From assembly GCF_006345805.1 (NCBI RefSeq), contig NC_043008.1, positions 72,478,001 to 72,542,000 of the forward strand: a DNA stretch of 64,000 nt. Direction: 5' to 3'. This DNA comes from Octopus sinensis. Lineage: Eukaryota. The position numbers and the translations under genes are program-made. Every line of letters begins with the position of its first letter. Positions within the stretch are counted from its first letter, which is position 1. Shown piece by piece: positions 2,119 through 50,165 of the stretch. The notes under the pieces are model-generated. The model was not told where the DNA came from and did no database searches. It saw nothing but the letters and a program-made list of their open reading frames with translations.

Positions 2119-3529
2119 GGATGACGAAATACATTATATATATACACACACATACACACAAACACATTTGTTGATGAACCAACTAATGTGCTTCTCCATT
2201 TTCTTATTTGCTATATATATATATATATATATATTTATACATACCTGCATATTGTTTAGGTGTGTATGATGAGACAAGTCATGATTGTTAAATAAGATGC
2301 TCTTAAGAAAATGAATACTATTTTTTAGTAGTAAATGGCAAATTGGATAGAACATTGGACGAAATACCTTGTGGTTTTTAGCTACATCTCTTTATGTTCT
2401 GAGTTCATGTGAGTATGATAGCATGCTACATAAGTAGCCATCCCCGCACTCACATTGTCACCATTATTTTCAAGGCCATTGATATTGTAAGTGGTTCGTC
2501 ACATATCATTTACAGTACAGCATAACTGATTTTGAGAAATTCAGAAGAATCGAATACCAATACATGACAGGTACTTTATTGACCTGGGAGAATAAAATAA
2601 AAAAAAAGGTTGACCATAATGAGATTTGAACTTAGATTGCTAATAGCCAAAACAATTTCTAGGTGGTATTTATTCAGTAAACTTATGATTCAGCCAACAG
2701 TCATCCACTAGTCAAGTAGTAGAGTCTACTGAGACCATGAGATGGTTTGAGTTACAGGAAATCAAGAGAAATAAAGAATTTAGTAGCTTGTTAAATCATC
2801 ATCATCATCATTTAGCATCTGCTTTCCATGCTAGCATGGGTTGGATGATTTGATTGAGGGCTGGCGAACCAGATGGCTGCACCAGGCTCCAATCTTGATC
2901 TGGCAGAGTTTCTACAGCTGGATGTCCTTTCTAATGCCAACCACTTCGAGAGTGTAGTGGGTGCTTTTTACATGATGCCCTTTTACAAGCCACCGGTATA
3001 CATACACATAACAAGCACAAGGGAAATAAGTGGTAGAGTTAAATTTCAGGTCTATTTAGAACTATATAATGTATATATCCTGTCTGTATTTATGATGGGA
3101 AAGTGTGAACTAAAGGAGATTTGGTTGCTATTTCTAGCAAGTAAGTGGCCACATAGACACTCCCTTGTTCTTGGCAAGAAAGGTATTTCTCTGTAAAAAA
3201 ATAGATTATAATTCATGAGTAAGGAATCTCTTGATGATTATGAAACATGGCTAGTGAAGGAATGTATAGAGATGGAGGTAAATCAAATGTAGAGAGTCGC
3301 AGTTTGATATTAGTGAATATGTTGTAGAGAATGTAAATGGACAATGACATAGGCCTCCAGTTCCTTAGTCCTTTACAAGATATCACGAAAGGCCATTTCT
3401 GATATGCTGAATAGTAACCCCTTCCATTCCATGACAGAATGTAAAAACACAATATGTTAAAACAATTCAAAAAGATATTTTATTTTAGAGATTAATTATT
3501 GTAAGTTTAATGTAGCTGCTAAACATGAT

Positions 3530-3895
3530 GCTTGTATGGCTGTGTGGTAAGAAGTTTACCTCCCAGCTACATGGTCCTAGGTTCAATCCCACTGCATGTC
3601 ACATTGGGTAGTAAGTGTCTTCTGCAGCCCCTGGCCTACCAAAGCATTGTGAGCAGATTTGTTAACTGGAAACTGAAAGAAGGCCATTGTGTGTGTGTGT
3701 GTGTGTGTGTACAACTGTCTTTTTGACATTCTCGTTATAGTTGTAAGCATTGTTATGCAAGCAGTGTCCTTCCTTTCCAGTCTTCTGTGTAAACATGTCA
3801 TGGGGAAATATTACCTTACTTGGAAGCATCTAATTCCCTCCAACCCATTTGAGCATGGAAAAGTCGACATTAAAGCATTGATGATGATGATGATG
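3530..3895 (+). mobile_element. tRNA-derived SINE, degenerate
   Basis: A-box/B-box-like head (tggctgtgtggtaag...ggttcaatccc), body shared with copies near 7.4 kb and 39.3 kb, internal (TG)n, RTE-like tail ending (ATG)n. Confidence 0.75.
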
Positions 3896-5327
3896 GTTCA
3901 AACATTAGCAGACAGTTGACTTCAAATTACCAAATCTGATCACAGAATTGTCTCGTCAACTCTGTAACTATTTCAATAGCGATATTCCTATTATCATTGA
4001 TGCTTCAAATAAAGTGACCCATTTAACACCTCACTGCCCTCTGCTTCTAAAAATGGCATTGCAGCAAACCATCTGAGACCATAATCGGATAAAATTGAAT
4101 TTAATCAAGCACAATGCATGTTGTTTATATGATTCATAAGATGTATTTTCTCTTCTTAAGAGATTATGTAAATATCTTGTCAGATTGAAACTAATGAAGC
4201 ATTTCAGTAACCTTTGTTGTTTGTGCATCTTGATCTGCTGATTGGTGTTTTCCATTGCATTTCTACAGGAAATGCACTTTTGTATTCACTTCATTATTTC
4301 TCCTTGTCTTTTATTGTCACTTGGTTGAATAAAACCATTGACACTTCTCGCATGCAACATACTCTTCATAGTTTGGCTCAGAAAAGAAAGCCTCTATTCT
4401 TATATTATGAGGTCTAAATCCACCTTATTAACACGGCTCCCTTATGATCCAAAAAGGGAGCCTGTACAAGGTGATTCAACTTGCATGAAATAGTAGCTGA
4501 ATCTCCCTCAAATCATATTTTATTGCTCTTGAAAAGAGCACAAGTTTGCATATAGGAAAAAGAAGATAAGGTCATGGCTGGAATGGTTTTGAATATGTCT
4601 GCTTGGCTAGAGCTGACCTGGGGTTAAACAACAGTAAACCTTCCTATCACTAGTTTCGACCTGACATCATTTCAGTAAACATTTTCTCATGCCATTGTTA
4701 CTTTCAATTACATTTGCAATCAATATCTCCTGATATTATATCTGGGGCATATCACAAGCATTAGTGTTAAACCCTATATTTAGTTTAATTTTGTTTACCC
4801 AGAAAAACTGTCCACTCCAAAAACAATCTGTCATCATTTTCTGGACTAATCACTGGTGAGCCTTATGTAATAGCAGTAGCAATAACCAGCAACTGCTTTC
4901 TACCAGCACCAGTCTATGTCAGTATTTTGTCCCAACCAATTACACAGTGAATCTCATTCATCATCAACTAAGCCTACCCACATCTTTACTTTTTGAATCA
5001 ATCAGCTATTTCAAGAATTTGTGCCATCACAAGTCTACATCATCAGTTTCCTTAACCAATCATTGGCTAAGACTGGTGCATTGGTTAAGACCTTACTGAC
5101 CGAAATTGTTAGCAGTGGTTATTAATCATGCAGCCCAGTTGAAGGTCACAGGATTACCAAGTCATGGTAACCCAGAGTGGTAGGACCATCTCCCAGAGTA
5201 GCAGTGCCACTTATCTTCTTGTAGGAGACTTGGTAGTTGACTAGCTATGGAACTTTCAACTCAGATATCAGTTCCATCAGCAGCACAGATACCATCATAA
5301 AGAACAAAACTAGCTTAATGTATATGC

Positions 5328-5410: not shown

Positions 5411-5572
5411 TAAATTTATAAATAAGGATAATATCGATATTATCAAGTGACTAGCATGGGGAAAAATACCGTCCAAAGGTAATAATTTTTTACAACTAAA
5501 AATAAGAGTGTCTGAGAGACACCACCATGCCGGCATGGTGGTGTCTCTCAGACACCCTAATTTTTAGTTGTA
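5411..5572. repeat. Fold-back element: 41-bp arms (5491-5531 / 5532-5572) plus an unpaired ~80-bp extension, between (TA)n tracts
   Basis: tacaactaaaaataagagtgtctgagagacaccaccatgcc is followed directly by its reverse complement with 2 mismatches and no spacer. Confidence 0.85.
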
Positions 5573-28991: not shown

Positions 28992-29402
28992 CCAATTATA
29001 TACGTTTTTATTCTTTTTGCAATTTACTTAATCATCAGTATATTATTGTTATTTTAATTCTAATATTTCTATTATATGTAATTTTCTAGATGGTGTAATT
29101 TAATTGTTCATTTTGAATTGATAAAAGGTGGGTTTTTTTCTAATTTTTTTATATATATATATATTATATTGTGTGAAATTTGATTTAGTATTTCTAAATT
29201 GAATTTTTCCCTGTAAGTTAGGATTAATATTCCCTCAAATAGTTATGATATATATATATATATATATATATTATATTAAATTAGAGACAAAACCACTATT
29301 AGGCAAATCAAACAATGAAAAACTTAAGCCAATACATAAGATTATGTAATTTATATTATTTAAATATATAACAAAATTATTAAAAAAATATAATTAATAT
29401 TA

Positions 29403-29466
29403 CACTACTATCGTTTCATGGCTGCTAACTTCTTCAAATTTTCGAGTCACAGTCATTCATCAGGTG
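29403..29466 (-). ncRNA. Type I hammerhead ribozyme motif (left arm)
   Basis: CAC CUGAUGA [long stem II] GAAAC GAUA GUA/GUG; one change in the stem III palindrome relative to the right-arm copy. Confidence 0.7.
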
Positions 29467-29980
29467 GTTTAAATATCTAAAATATAATCAATATTTTTAA
29501 GATATAAATAATATATATAATAATTTTACTTATAATAAACTCTATTATTAAATATGATTATATCGAAATCGACTATAATGTTAAATATTAACTTTAATTT
29601 ATAAGGTAGGAAACCCATAATCTAATATCAATATTAGTCTATGTCTAATTACATAAATATTTAAAATGACTAATATATATAAATTATCAATGAAAATATA
29701 TATAAATATTATAATCATTTTTATTAGTGTTTATAATATTTATATATATTTTCATTGATAATTTATATATATTAGTCATTTTAAATATTTATGTAATTAG
29801 ATATAGACTAATATTGATATTAGATTATGGGTTTCCTACCTTATAAATTAAAGTTAATATTTAACATAGTCGATTTCGATATAATCATATTTAATAATAG
29901 AGTTTATTATAAGTAAAATTATTATATTATATATATTATTTATATCTTAAAAATATTGATTATATTTTAGATATTTAAAC

Positions 29981-30044
29981 CACCTGATGAATGACTGTGA
30001 CTCGAAAATTTGAAGAAGTTAGCAGCCATGAAACGATCGTAGTG
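29981..30044 (+). ncRNA. Type I hammerhead ribozyme motif (right arm)
   Basis: CAC CUGAUGA AUGACUG-UGACU...AGUUA-G-CAGCCAU GAA ACGAUCGU A/GUG: stem I CAC:GUG, palindromic stem III ACGAUCGU, GUA site, predicted cleavage after 30041. Confidence 0.8.
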
Positions 30045-31481
30045 TGATATTAATTATATTTTTTTAATAATTTTGTTATATATTTAAATAATATAAATTA
30101 AATAATCTTATGTATTGGCTTAAGTTTTTCATTGTTTGATTTGCCTAATAGTGGTTTTGTCTCTAATTTAATATAATATAATATTTTACTATAAAATTGG
30201 ATTCAATCCTAAATCTGATTTTTCCCTGTAAGTTTGGATTTATTCCCTAATATTTATTATTAATTTATATATATATATATATTATATACATATATGAGAA
30301 TGGTGGCAATTTAACCGACTTACTCCCGCCCCTAAAATTGCCAGCCTTTTACCAAAATTTGAAAACAGTATATTATTATATACTGTTGCAATATTTCAAT
30401 TTTCTTTTCTTTCATATCACTTGTATATTTGTTTATAATTTGGTAGAGTGAGTTGCTGTACAAAACGTAAAACTTGTCTTTCTGCCTGTGATGTTTTGTG
30501 TAAGTGTGTTTGACCATCATCGATGCACACCAAGGCTATGGTTTAGTTGTCATTCACTTGTTGTAAATGTCTGGCAACTTTAAGTATTTTTTATGTTTCT
30601 AGAGTTTTGCATTTGATAATCAAAAACTAGTTTATTAAACATAACAGTCATTAAATGCTGCAAGCCATGTACCAAAAAGGAGGCATAAAGAGATGATTTC
30701 CCCTTCTCGTATAACTGCCAAAAGACTAAGAAAATTTTCATGAGTTTTTTTCTGCTAGAACACTGATATTTTGGCCTGTTTTCAATATTTTATTATTGGA
30801 AGGTGGCAAGCTGGTAGAATTCTTAGTACGCTGGACAAGATGCTTAGTGGCATTTTTTACATTCTGAGTTCAAATTCCATTGAGTTTGACTCTACTTTTC
30901 ATTCATTCAAGGTCGATGAAATAAGTGCCAGCAGAACACTGGGGTATATTCAATCAATTTGGCCCCTCCCACAAACTGCTGGCCTTGTGCCAATATGAAA
31001 TCAATTTTTATTGTTGGACCATGTGGACTTATGCTTATCTGGCTCCATAGTCTATGGTGCTTGGTCTGTCATCTGTAATATGACCATGTTAAACTTGATG
31101 TAATTTTTTGCATTTAAGAAAGCACTTCTTACATACTGGTAAACAGGGTGTATATTATTATATATTATTATTAATCAGCAGAAGGTGGCAAGCTAGCAGA
31201 ATCGCTATTGTGCCAGATAATAGGCTTAACAGCATTTTGTCCACTTTTTCATTCTGAGTTAAAATGCTGCCAAGGTTCGCTTTGCCTTTTATCCTTTTGG
31301 GGTCAATAAAATAAGTACCAGTGGGATCAATGCATTTGACTAGCCCCCCCTTCTCCAAACTTGCTGGCCTTGTGCCAAAATTTGAAATAATTATTATTAA
31401 GCAGCAGATGTTCAAATTATTCAACAATTATATGAGTGTGTATATAATGATCATCATTTACTGTTCATTTTCTGTGGTGGC

Positions 31482-42292: not shown

Positions 42293-43436
42293 ATACATTA
42301 AGCTCAAATCACTGAAAAGTATTGCACACACTCATATTACACATTTAAAATTAAGACACATTTCCTACTTGCTTTTTGTGACTTGTATTTCATAAACAGG
42401 ATGTGCAAGAATTAAATGCATATCACACACAAACATTGCACACAACATTCCCCTATTCACTCAAGCAATACACATGTCACTTGCACATTACCCAAACATC
42501 TCTCCCATTCACACTCACTCACTAGTAAACACACACACACACACACACGCTTGTATTCATACACATACAAACACACATATTCCTTACTGACACTTGTACA
42601 CATCAAACTAATGAACATCAAATTCACAGATTCACACACACACTTACTTCCCATTGACACCTACACCTCCTTCCAAATGACATATACTTCCCTTCAACTG
42701 ACACATCCTATTCAGTGACACAGTACTTCCCCCAGACATAAATGTACATGTCTTTCTCATTGATACATTTGCATACATTCTTTTCACTGACACCCACTCC
42801 AGCAACACACACACTTGCACACACATACAAATAAACATCTCTCTCTCTCACTCACATACACACATACCTCTCCTTCTGATGCACCCACAGATATTCATAT
42901 CACTCCCACATACATATATACTTCCCATCATTGAAACACACACCCTTTTTTTTTAACTTTTTCCGCTCCTTACAGAAGGTCCCAGTACCTTCAAATAAAT
43001 AGACCCTACTAAGAGAGTTTCTGGAACTTGTGTTAAATTTGCAATGAATCAGCTTTAAAACAAAAGAAATGAGATGCACCCTCCCATCTAACTAATTCTC
43101 CTCACGATGTTCTGATGAAGCTGAGGCCATTGAACACATTTACCTATGGTACCACATCTACGCATGTGGCCACACTCCTGTACACTACACACAGCCACCC
43201 TTGAACATGCAAATACACTGCACACAACTATTCTTGCACATGCAGCTGCACCTATATATACAGTACATATTGCTTCGTGGTTGCCTGGGACAATCCAAGC
43301 AAAGATCATCAAATGATGAATGCAAACATGCACTACAATGCTGCATACCTCCACACCCAAGCTGACTTGACCAATAAATAAATTATTTACATTATTTACA
43401 TTTGACAGATATTTGTTCTCACCTTGTTTGTTGTTA

Positions 43437-43482
43437 AACACAATGTTTCGGCTGATACACCCTTCAGTCTTCATCAGGTATC
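43437..43482 (-). ncRNA. Minimal hammerhead motif, partly decayed
   Basis: GAUAC CUGAUGA A GACUGA AGGGUGUA UCAGCC GAAAC AUU GUGUU. Confidence 0.6.
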
Positions 43483-43529
43483 TTGGGGAAATTTCAAACA
43501 TGGGTTATCATTCCTAAGGTATTTTTCGA

Positions 43530-43570
<41 letters not shown>

Positions 43571-43636
43571 TCACTACCTGGGATTGAACTCAGAAAATAC
43601 CATAGGAATGAGATCCCAGGTTCGAAAATTCCCCAA

Positions 43637-43682
43637 GACACCTGATGAAGGCTAAAGAGTATATCAGCTGAAACGTTGTGTT
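43637..43682 (+). ncRNA. Minimal hammerhead motif (stem III reduced to the palindrome ACGU)
   Basis: GACAC CUGAUGA A GGCU...AGCU GAAAC GUU/GUGUU; stem I GACAC:GUGUU. Confidence 0.65.
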
Positions 43683-44211
43683 AACAACAAACAAGATGAG
43701 AACAAATATCTGTGAAATGTAAATAATGTACATAATTCCTCATTGCTAAAATATAGAACTGTAATAAATAAATGCATTGAACTTGCTCAATGCAAATGGC
43801 CAAAAAAACAAAAAGAAAATATGTGTGTATATATCACACACGTGTGCATGCATAAACACACACACATATCTTTTATCTTTTGCTTGTTTCAGGTTTTGGA
43901 TTGGGGCCATGCTGTGGAACCCCTTTGAAGGGTTTAATCAACCAAATTAACCCCAGAATTGAAGATTTTGTTTTCAAGCCTGCTTTTTATTCTATCTGTT
44001 ACTTTTCCTGAACTACTAAGTTACAGGGACATAAAGAAAGCAACACTAGTTGTCAGGTAGTAGTATGGAACAAATAAATACACACACAAACACACACACA
44101 CAAACATGTCTGTTGTCTAGCATGTAAATTTTCCATTTGTTCTTTTTTGCATCCATCTGTTCAATTTTTGAATGTGTATATATATATATATATATATTTA
44201 TTTTATAGAAG

Positions 44212-44264
44212 GAGCTTCTACAGGACTAGAACTGTTTCATTCAAAAGAAATCATCAGGAAGCTC
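44212..44264 (-). ncRNA. Type I hammerhead ribozyme (mirror copy)
   Basis: Exact reverse complement of 44267-44319. Confidence 0.85.
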
Positions 44265-44266
44265 CT

Positions 44267-44319
44267 GAGCTTCCTGATGATTTCTTTTGAATGAAACAGT
44301 TCTAGTCCTGTAGAAGCTC
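44267..44319 (+). ncRNA. Type I hammerhead ribozyme
   Basis: GAGCUUC CUGAUGA U UUC-UUUU-GAA U GAA ACAG-UUCUAGUC-CUGU A/GAAGCUC: 7-bp stem I, 3-bp stem II, 4-bp stem III, GUA site, predicted cleavage after 44312. Confidence 0.88.
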
Positions 44320-44400
44320 CTTCTATAAAATAAATTAATTTACTCTGCTATGTATTGAGTACCTTATTTACTGTGGTTAACCCCGACTCAACCCGGGACC

Positions 44401-44479
<79 letters not shown>

Positions 44480-46399: not shown

Positions 46400-46720
46400 A
46401 ATTAACAGAATGTGATAAAAATCCAAGGCCATGAAAGATTTCAAAACATTTATAAAGAGAAGGGATATATAAAATATCCCGGAAACAGCTGTAAGACCTT
46501 CCCTTTATAAATGTTCTGAATTCTTTCACAGCCTTGGATTTTTATTTCATTCTGTTAATTTTTTATATGTGCACATGCTGATATATGACCTATGTTGGAC
46601 TCCTCATTCATATAATCACCGAACCTGGAGCTTAAATATAGTCTGTCCATAGCCCTTACTCAGCATTACCTGACACCTTTGGGTCTTCTTGACACCATTA
46701 CCTCTCATAACCTATTTATG
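46400..46720 (+). mobile_element. Fold-back element of the same family as 49826-50165, with a 5'-truncated hammerhead, lying between RTE 3' pieces
   Basis: 46400-46463 is inverted relative to about 46497-46560; retains GA-A-GGGAUAU-AUAAA-AUAUCCC-G-GAA-ACAGCUGU-A/AGAC but lacks CUGAU; tail ends in (TA)n. Confidence 0.8.
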
Positions 46721-49787: not shown

Positions 49788-49825
<38 letters not shown>

Positions 49826-49827
<2 letters not shown>

Positions 49828-50165
49828 TTAACAGAATGAGATAAAAATCAAAGGCTGTGGAAGATTTCAGAACATTTATAAAGAGAAAGTCTTACGGCTG
49901 TTTCCGGGATATTTTATATATCCCTTCATCAGAGACGGTGTAAGAAAACGGTTAAGTAATAGTTATTCTAGAAAAGATATGAAATAGAGAGTGAAGCAGA
50001 CTCTTATTTCATATCATCTCTAGAATAACTATTGCTTAACCATTTTCTCGCGCTGCCTCCAATAAAGGGATATATAAAATATCCCGGAAACAGGTGTAAG
50101 TCTTTCTCTTTATAAATGTTCTGAAATCTTTCACAGCCTTTGATTTTTATCTCATTCTGTTAATT
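49826..50165. mobile_element. Palindromic non-coding element (arms about 166 bp, centre about 49993-49999) in (TA)n; intact hammerhead in the left arm, decayed one in the right
   Basis: Arms are reverse complements; the right-arm core reads CCAAUAA (50059-50065) instead of CUGAUGA. Confidence 0.88.
49889..49936 (-). ncRNA. Type I hammerhead ribozyme motif
   Basis: GUCU CUGAUGA A GGGAUAU-AUAAA-AUAUCCC G GAAAC AGCC GUA/AGAC; 7-bp stem II, stem I GUCU:AGAC. Confidence 0.82.

Follow-up and report, generated by a model that had tools for sequence, protein, structure and literature searches.

A 208-nt head-to-head stub of a probable Hydra-clade Penelope-like element in Octopus sinensis, and how its family may be copied from RNA

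A perfect palindrome in a 64,000-nt stretch of Octopus sinensis contig NC_043008.1 (the window) is, judging by its sequence and its relatives, the stub of a young Hydra-clade Penelope-like element (PLE) inserted in a (TA)n microsatellite. Our preferred reading, to which we give a probability of about 0.65, is that the stub is a dead-end product, made when both DNA ends of the cut (TA)n tract primed reverse transcription on the same uncleaved, capped RNA. The stub would not be mobile on its own because it has neither TATA box nor ORF. Comparison of sampled loci establishes the parent family, the outer ends at +68 and +136 (+1 being 44268, where hammerhead stem I begins), the clustering of inner ends at that base and the subfamily variants that the two arms share; that the RNA starts at +1 and is capped is what we infer from these sequences. 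A head-to-head stub of a Hydra-clade PLE is an already known kind of structure, and the family-wide junction evidence is the added part.

The palindrome and its parent element

The earlier note on this DNA had described a perfect palindrome with 69-bp arms and a 2-nt spacer, and sequence comparison confirmed that 44196-44264 and 44267-44335 are exact reverse complements separated by CT (44265-44266); in ten shuffles of the window the best perfect arm was only 8-11 bp. The fold-back point lies at the start of stem I, as had been proposed, and family-wide the inner ends of arms pile up at the same base, +1. The proposed unit was 44196 to 44402; the inserted unit, including its 68-nt tail, reaches 44403. 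The stub is 208 nt long, holds no ORF and carries its tail on the right arm only. The sequences flanking the palindrome have 27% identity to each other's mirror and so are not mirror images. The features of the locus are collected in Table 1.

Table 1. Features of the stub and its target; positions are those of the window
Feature	Position	Strand	Remarks
(TA)n target microsatellite, left	44177..44197	.	sequence; last letters shared with arm end
Short arm, element +1..+68	44196..44263	-	outer end is the AT-rich second end point of the family
Mirror hammerhead motif, 9-bp stem I	44210..44266	-	predicted cut 44219/44218, position by mirror symmetry
Head-to-head junction letters	44264..44267	.	non-element: one extra C/G per arm plus a 2-nt insert
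Type I hammerhead motif	44267..44319	+	predicted cut after 44312
Long arm, element +1..+68	44268..44335	+	+1 is the first base of stem I, inferred transcription start
One-sided 68-nt tail	44336..44403	+	ends at the first end point of the family, +136
(AT)n target microsatellite, right	44404..44476	.	sequence

The window holds other inverted structures. An older head-to-head pair of another hammerhead-bearing family lies at 43381-43737, with arms 85-95% complementary and cores at 43446-43477 (-) and 43642-43673 (+). A near-palindrome at about 29250-30200 is very rich in AT; its arms are several hundred bases long, and it holds hammerhead-like cores at 29440-29463 (-) and 29984-30007 (+). A further family is represented by two inverted-repeat fragments, at 46400-46560 and about 49825-50100, with a hammerhead-like core at 49901-49932 (-), and a perfect 48-bp palindrome with no spacer adjoins an AT tract at 5508-5555.

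A search of the genome with 44267-44402 gave 312 candidates, and among the 40 scored, 17 places (the window's included) were identical over all 136 nt; three of the 17 have common flanks and are segmental duplicates. From +1 to +136 the window copy differs at 2 positions from each terminal repeat of the full-length copy L045. The stub had been called a very recent insertion. That it is young agrees with the 16 other identical places among those scored, but its perfect arms are no proof of a very recent event because arms are born identical: arm compared with arm, only 31 of 2643 sites differ and 30 of 53 sampled pairs are perfect, so that perfect arms are the norm.

One copy of the stub family runs on into the start of an ORF. 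Long copies have the hammerhead followed by an ORF for a reverse transcriptase (RT) and a GIY-YIG-type endonuclease, and in L045, where the terminal repeat stands on both sides of the ORF region, an ATG lies at +183 and a TATAAA starts at -29. All six long copies viewed are disrupted by stops or frameshifts, and nearly all sampled copies adjoin (TA)n. The parent-element protein has YRDD and YIG motifs, CNCPDKTTC (a CxCX5C linker), and CDLC..E and N...CMH, that is, CxxC and CxH flanking the conserved E and N of the endonuclease; inspection by eye showed no CCHH motif in it. L048 has RWR and DKT, the latter replacing DKG, and the four relatives viewed have RWR or RWK, with DKT in most. A protein search in which 8000 candidates were scored found 1619 relatives; the related loci compared below are metagenome loci with 37-43% identity.

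The Hydra clade has been characterized by RW[K/R], DKT, CxCX5C, CxxC and CxH, a hammerhead in the terminal repeat and (TA)n targets (Craig et al. 2021, PMC8557442), and the present element is like it in all the protein motifs listed, in the terminal-repeat hammerhead and in the targets. The assignment is based on motifs and homologues; a Pfam scan of two ORF pieces returned no RT and no GIY-YIG family. The element differs in size, the repeat-to-repeat distance in L045 being about 4.6 kb against a reported <3 kb. The L045 unit has this length owing to its microsatellite-like 3' region. The size criterion is worded "generally" in PMC8557442, which makes size a difference more than an exclusion. 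In L045 (oriented positions 2950-5250) the ORF stop is separated from the terminal repeat by about 2 kb of microsatellite-like TG/TA sequence, and in L047 a further repeat is inserted within this region. The insert of stem III is 11 nt in the Octopus family and 5-6 nt in 29 relatives. The family may already be listed in the PMC8557442 supplements of Hydra families and hammerheads.

The hammerhead motif and its predicted folding

The claim of two complete hammerheads back to back holds, in that each arm has, on its own strand, a type I motif with CUGANGA and GAAA boxes, an NUH triplet and three stems. The plus-strand motif has CTGATGA at 44274-44280, GAAA at 44293-44296 and GTA at the predicted cut. 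Stem III (44296-44311), with 4 bp and an 8-nt loop, is as it had been described. The 7-bp stem I is not: its seventh pair uses G44267, a junction letter and not an element base, and the natural stem I is 6 bp because in long natural copies +1 is preceded by T, A or C, while the minus-strand copy reaches its greater length through junction letters. Stem II has 3 bp only and is closed by a U.U opposition replacing G10.1-C11.1. With the U.U and a 6-bp natural stem I, neither the G10.1-C11.1 pair nor a tertiary contact between stem I and loop II was found. Decay was ruled out as the source of the U.U closure, which is common in relatives (15 of 29; loci L228-L304); the variant is not noted in the account of PLE hammerheads in PMC4209133, as far as that text was available to us. 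A hammerhead is found in 52 of 77 related loci. Among Rfam models no family reached its gathering score; the best hammerhead was Hammerhead_3 (16 bits, E 0.98), and the matches by E-value were to generic hairpin models.

The hammerhead helices are predicted to take up about 5% of the ensemble of a single arm and 0.4-0.5% of that of an RNA starting at +1. The palindromic CUAG in the loop of stem III favours a dimer, with a predicted -12.8 kcal/mol against -1.4 for each monomer hairpin. Folding as a monomer, which the earlier note had proposed, is possible since the stem III insert is longer than in the relatives, but it is predicted to be weak and the CUAG dimer to be favoured. In the palindrome the hammerhead helices carry a predicted cost of 74 kcal/mol on either strand, in agreement with the suggestion that the long hairpin out-competes the ribozyme fold. 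A hairpin is predicted for element +42..+60 (window 44309-44327), covering the 3' strand of stem I as well as the cut site, and would be a possible off state of the natural RNA. Poor cleavage in vitro is reported for metazoan PLE hammerheads (PMC4209133), and the Anolis PLE hammerhead is reported to need protein (PMC11167929).

End points, junctions and the origin of the inversion

An exact 28-mer of the core occurs 2213 times in the genome and an exact 30-mer of the tail 1418 times. Among the first 100 core matches, which fall in 69 stretches, 46 head-to-head pairs were counted. From the first 100 tail matches 98 loci were recovered, or 96 after two duplicates were removed, and at least 55 of the 96 are head to head, a minimum since very short or diverged arms escaped the script. 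Zero-spacer junctions centred on AGCT are found at 267 loci. The window's own 22-nt junction occurs at 26 places, and of the 12 of these that were viewed, 11 have flanks distinct from one another; the 12 include two subfamilies and carry the tail on either side; therefore this junction was made repeatedly. The window locus is an ordinary stub, one of hundreds, and its structure is not unique in the genome.

The outer end lies at +136 to +140 in long arms; in short arms it falls between +60 and +70 in 54 of 55 pairs, with a mode of +68. In long insertions, as in L047, the tail is likewise at one end only. Of 55 short-arm inner ends, 24 lie at +1..+3, three pass upstream and one is at the ribozyme cut site (+45..+47). 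The +1 counts of the extension script are inflated, because the +1 peak coincides with the self-complementary AGCT, which would attract joins in any case. Long arms reach upstream of +1 in 23 of 98 cases, and therefore longer templates also exist; such extensions would come from read-through into the downstream repeat.

Many junctions have an extra G before +1. At 39 native ends of long copies the base before +1 is T in 22, A in 13, C in 3 and G in 1; genome-wide it is G at 320 places and C at 81. Inspection by eye removed native and mirror-explained cases and left 7 of 30 G and 5 of 44 C unexplained, which scales genome-wide to about 75 against 9. Of 30 cases of a G before +1, 11 have it on the short arm. 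In full-length L1 insertions an extra G marks capped mRNA (PMC11702581). The same letter would result if the end of the cDNA snapped back on its stem I, and the extra C of the cDNA could instead have this source. A spliced upstream exon, an idea prompted by the AG at +1/+2 after a pyrimidine tract and by the report of a Drosophila intron that ends at helix I (PMC4209133), was rejected as the source of the G: the AG is kept, and the letters 5' of the G have no common sequence.

The start at +1 would lie 29 nt below the TATA box. Among relatives with a hammerhead (51 sites de-duplicated to 29), 8 of 29 have a TATA at a distance of 34-42 nt above the core, against a background of 5% and with 0 of 5000 shuffles as high, in an interval set after the data were viewed, with several of the 8 matches related and 21 of the 29 relatives without TATA. 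The promoter of Drosophila Penelope is described as internal and TATA-less (PMC2377424), and a putative TATA box has been noted in a rotifer PLE repeat (PMC3846280). At L006:1100-1636 a repeat and an ORF start are followed by another repeat, which is attached at its +1 and has an extra G there, as though copying had jumped from the 5' end of one RNA into another; the L148 and L124 junctions hold repeated short re-copied inserts of +1..+17, resembling iterative re-priming.

Priming from both DNA ends on one sense RNA, which we prefer, would proceed as follows. The element protein would cut the (TA)n tract, and the template would be an RNA starting at +1. Of the two DNA ends, one would start copying around +136 and its partner at the AT-rich site near +68. 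Both cDNAs would reach the cap, the first displacing the second or re-copying past it, and each would often gain one extra C. The cDNA 3' ends would then be joined through the self-complementary AGCT, or through microhomologies of 1-4 nt with short re-copied inserts, and the window junction would be a microhomology join with such an insert. The arms agree at the polymorphic position +18 in 38 of 38 pairs (22 T/T and 16 A/A; 51% expected if independent) and their haplotypes in 37 of 38 (permutation maximum 28), which favours one template and is also compatible with two RNAs of one locus or later conversion between arms. Long-arm stops are not enriched near the second priming site, the counts being 11 in about 36 nt and roughly 19 in 51 nt, so that they give no sign of a block by the second primer. 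Cleaved RNA was rejected as the main template, there being no peak at +46 and 1 of 55 short arms at the cut site.

The inversion might instead be made by self-priming or fold-back, in which one molecule folds at AGCT and copies itself. That molecule would be the first cDNA or, as has been suggested for rotifer PLEs, an antisense RNA, and the endonuclease or microhomology with (TA)n would fix the outer ends afterwards. Self-priming has a precedent in the proposal of PMC3846280, and it explains both the identical arms and the modal, AGCT-centred junction; furthermore, some joins centre on a near-palindrome at +14..+29, and some solo copies keep mirror remnants of 4-6 nt. We regard this origin as unlikely, on the evidence of the arms themselves. 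In 11 of 55 pairs the arms barely overlap or do not overlap, the short arm holding sequence missing from a long arm that stops at +61..+88, although non-overlapping copies could be mimicked by one-sided deletion after insertion. It is the short arm that extends further 5' in 19 pairs, against 8 for the long arm; the extra G is found on either arm. Gapped arms, the reach of the short arm and a G on either arm argue against fold-back of a single cDNA and against antisense self-priming, and for two-end priming on one sense RNA. The window's junction, moreover, occurs with the tail on either side, and a purified PLE extends both strands of its target, starting at two sites on the RNA (PMC11167929).

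Two RNAs of one source copy, one for each half of a protein dimer, might also be copied from +136 and +68 and joined head to head. Loading in cis would then fit the concordant arms, no strand displacement would be needed, and the Anolis protein is predicted to be a dimer (PMC11167929). We nevertheless give this scheme, too, a low probability: at least two subfamilies made stubs, yet none of 38 pairs is T/A-discordant, and arms abutting near +68 resemble the single-RNA twin priming of L1 (PMC11702581).

The earlier note had suggested that the palindrome could protect host transcripts, and it might accordingly have been kept since its ribozyme is silenced and read-through host transcripts are spared. 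The predicted folding cost given above fits this, and the antisense arm is transcribed first in both directions. Protection is nonetheless very improbable as the reason for the structure, given that in over half of the sampled loci the copying mechanism itself yields the hairpin as a routine product of insertion, that solo copies with an unmasked hammerhead also persist, and that the natural ribozyme is predicted to be mostly misfolded anyway. By eye, only transposon-like frames and no host exon were recognised in the window. Blocking of the ribozyme by the hairpin is thus probably a by-product of copying, and no sign of selection for host protection was seen. An artefact of assembly or of a fold-back chimeric read has next to no chance, for although no contig examined spans the locus, which is therefore without direct read support, the flanks are not mirrored, the mirror stops at an end fixed in the family, the same junction recurs at its 26 places, and other left-arm/right-arm joints of the family are present in contigs of three studies (runs X1, X2/X3, X4).

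Relation to known elements and meaning of the stubs

In a typical PLE unit a 5'-truncated terminal repeat is present in inverted orientation, a tail is found at one end only and the head-to-head junction forms a palindrome (Arkhipova et al. 2013, PMC3846280; PMC8557442). The stub shares the head-to-head inversion, the tail at one end and the microsatellite target; it differs in being 208 nt without an ORF, in a tail of 68 nt against 30-40, and in inner ends that pile up at one base with an extra G. This one-base pile-up with its extra G speaks for a capped template of sense orientation and against the antisense self-priming of 2013. In the Anolis Poseidon PLE (Frangieh et al. 2024, PMC11167929), the purified protein cuts and extends both strands, two internal start sites bound the tail, and hammerhead cleavage is not needed. 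The likeness to the present family lies in the two internal starts bounding the tail, the AT-rich targets and the extension of both strands on an uncut RNA template, which is proposed here. Poseidon belongs to a different clade, its own hammerhead overlaps the ORF start, and its account, in the part available to us, says nothing of how the two cDNAs are joined.

PLE hammerheads (Cervera and De la Pena 2014, PMC4209133) are alike in the terminal-repeat type I motif and the lack of an evident tertiary loop contact, and pairs of them on opposite strands have been reported 100-700 bp apart; the present motif differs in its closed 4-bp stem III with an 8-nt loop and in the U.U opposition. The twin priming of L1 (PMC11702581) is similar in internal second priming, microhomology joins and the extra G at full-length 5' ends. 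L1 arms, however, overlap by 1-10 nt only, whereas here most pairs duplicate up to the whole of +1..+68 and are true palindromes, and the second priming site is fixed in the present family. Non-LTR retrozymes (bioRxiv 10.64898/2026.07.22.740005) are likewise short, non-coding, PLE-derived sequences with a type I hammerhead, but theirs are head-to-tail tandem units, whereas the stubs are head to head with ends unmatched to the cut site. The stub was accordingly rejected as a non-LTR retrozyme: its family has ends at +1, +68 and +136, and only the one short arm noted above ends at the cut.

The formation of the tandem and inverted structures of PLEs is named in PMC8557442 as an unresolved question, and the family outweighs the single locus in that it bears on the origin of PLE inversions and on the role of PLE hammerheads. 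From the junctions one would predict a transcription start at stem I, a cap-derived G on both arms and one sense template, with no cleavage before copying. Near-perfect hairpins of 60-70 bp stand at hundreds of places in the genome and, if transcribed, could be substrates for RNA editing or small-RNA pathways. At slightly less than even odds, we would take the stubs as a genome-wide record of how PLE inversions arise, in which a TATA-driven RNA starts at the hammerhead and one capped, uncleaved sense RNA is copied from two fixed sites. The hammerhead would then be a 5' leader, and its cleavage would remove the cap. A two-end account with a capped sense RNA was not found stated in the main texts of the open-access literature searched. 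If true, it would replace the antisense self-priming model and would explain why most PLE insertions are miniature palindromes.
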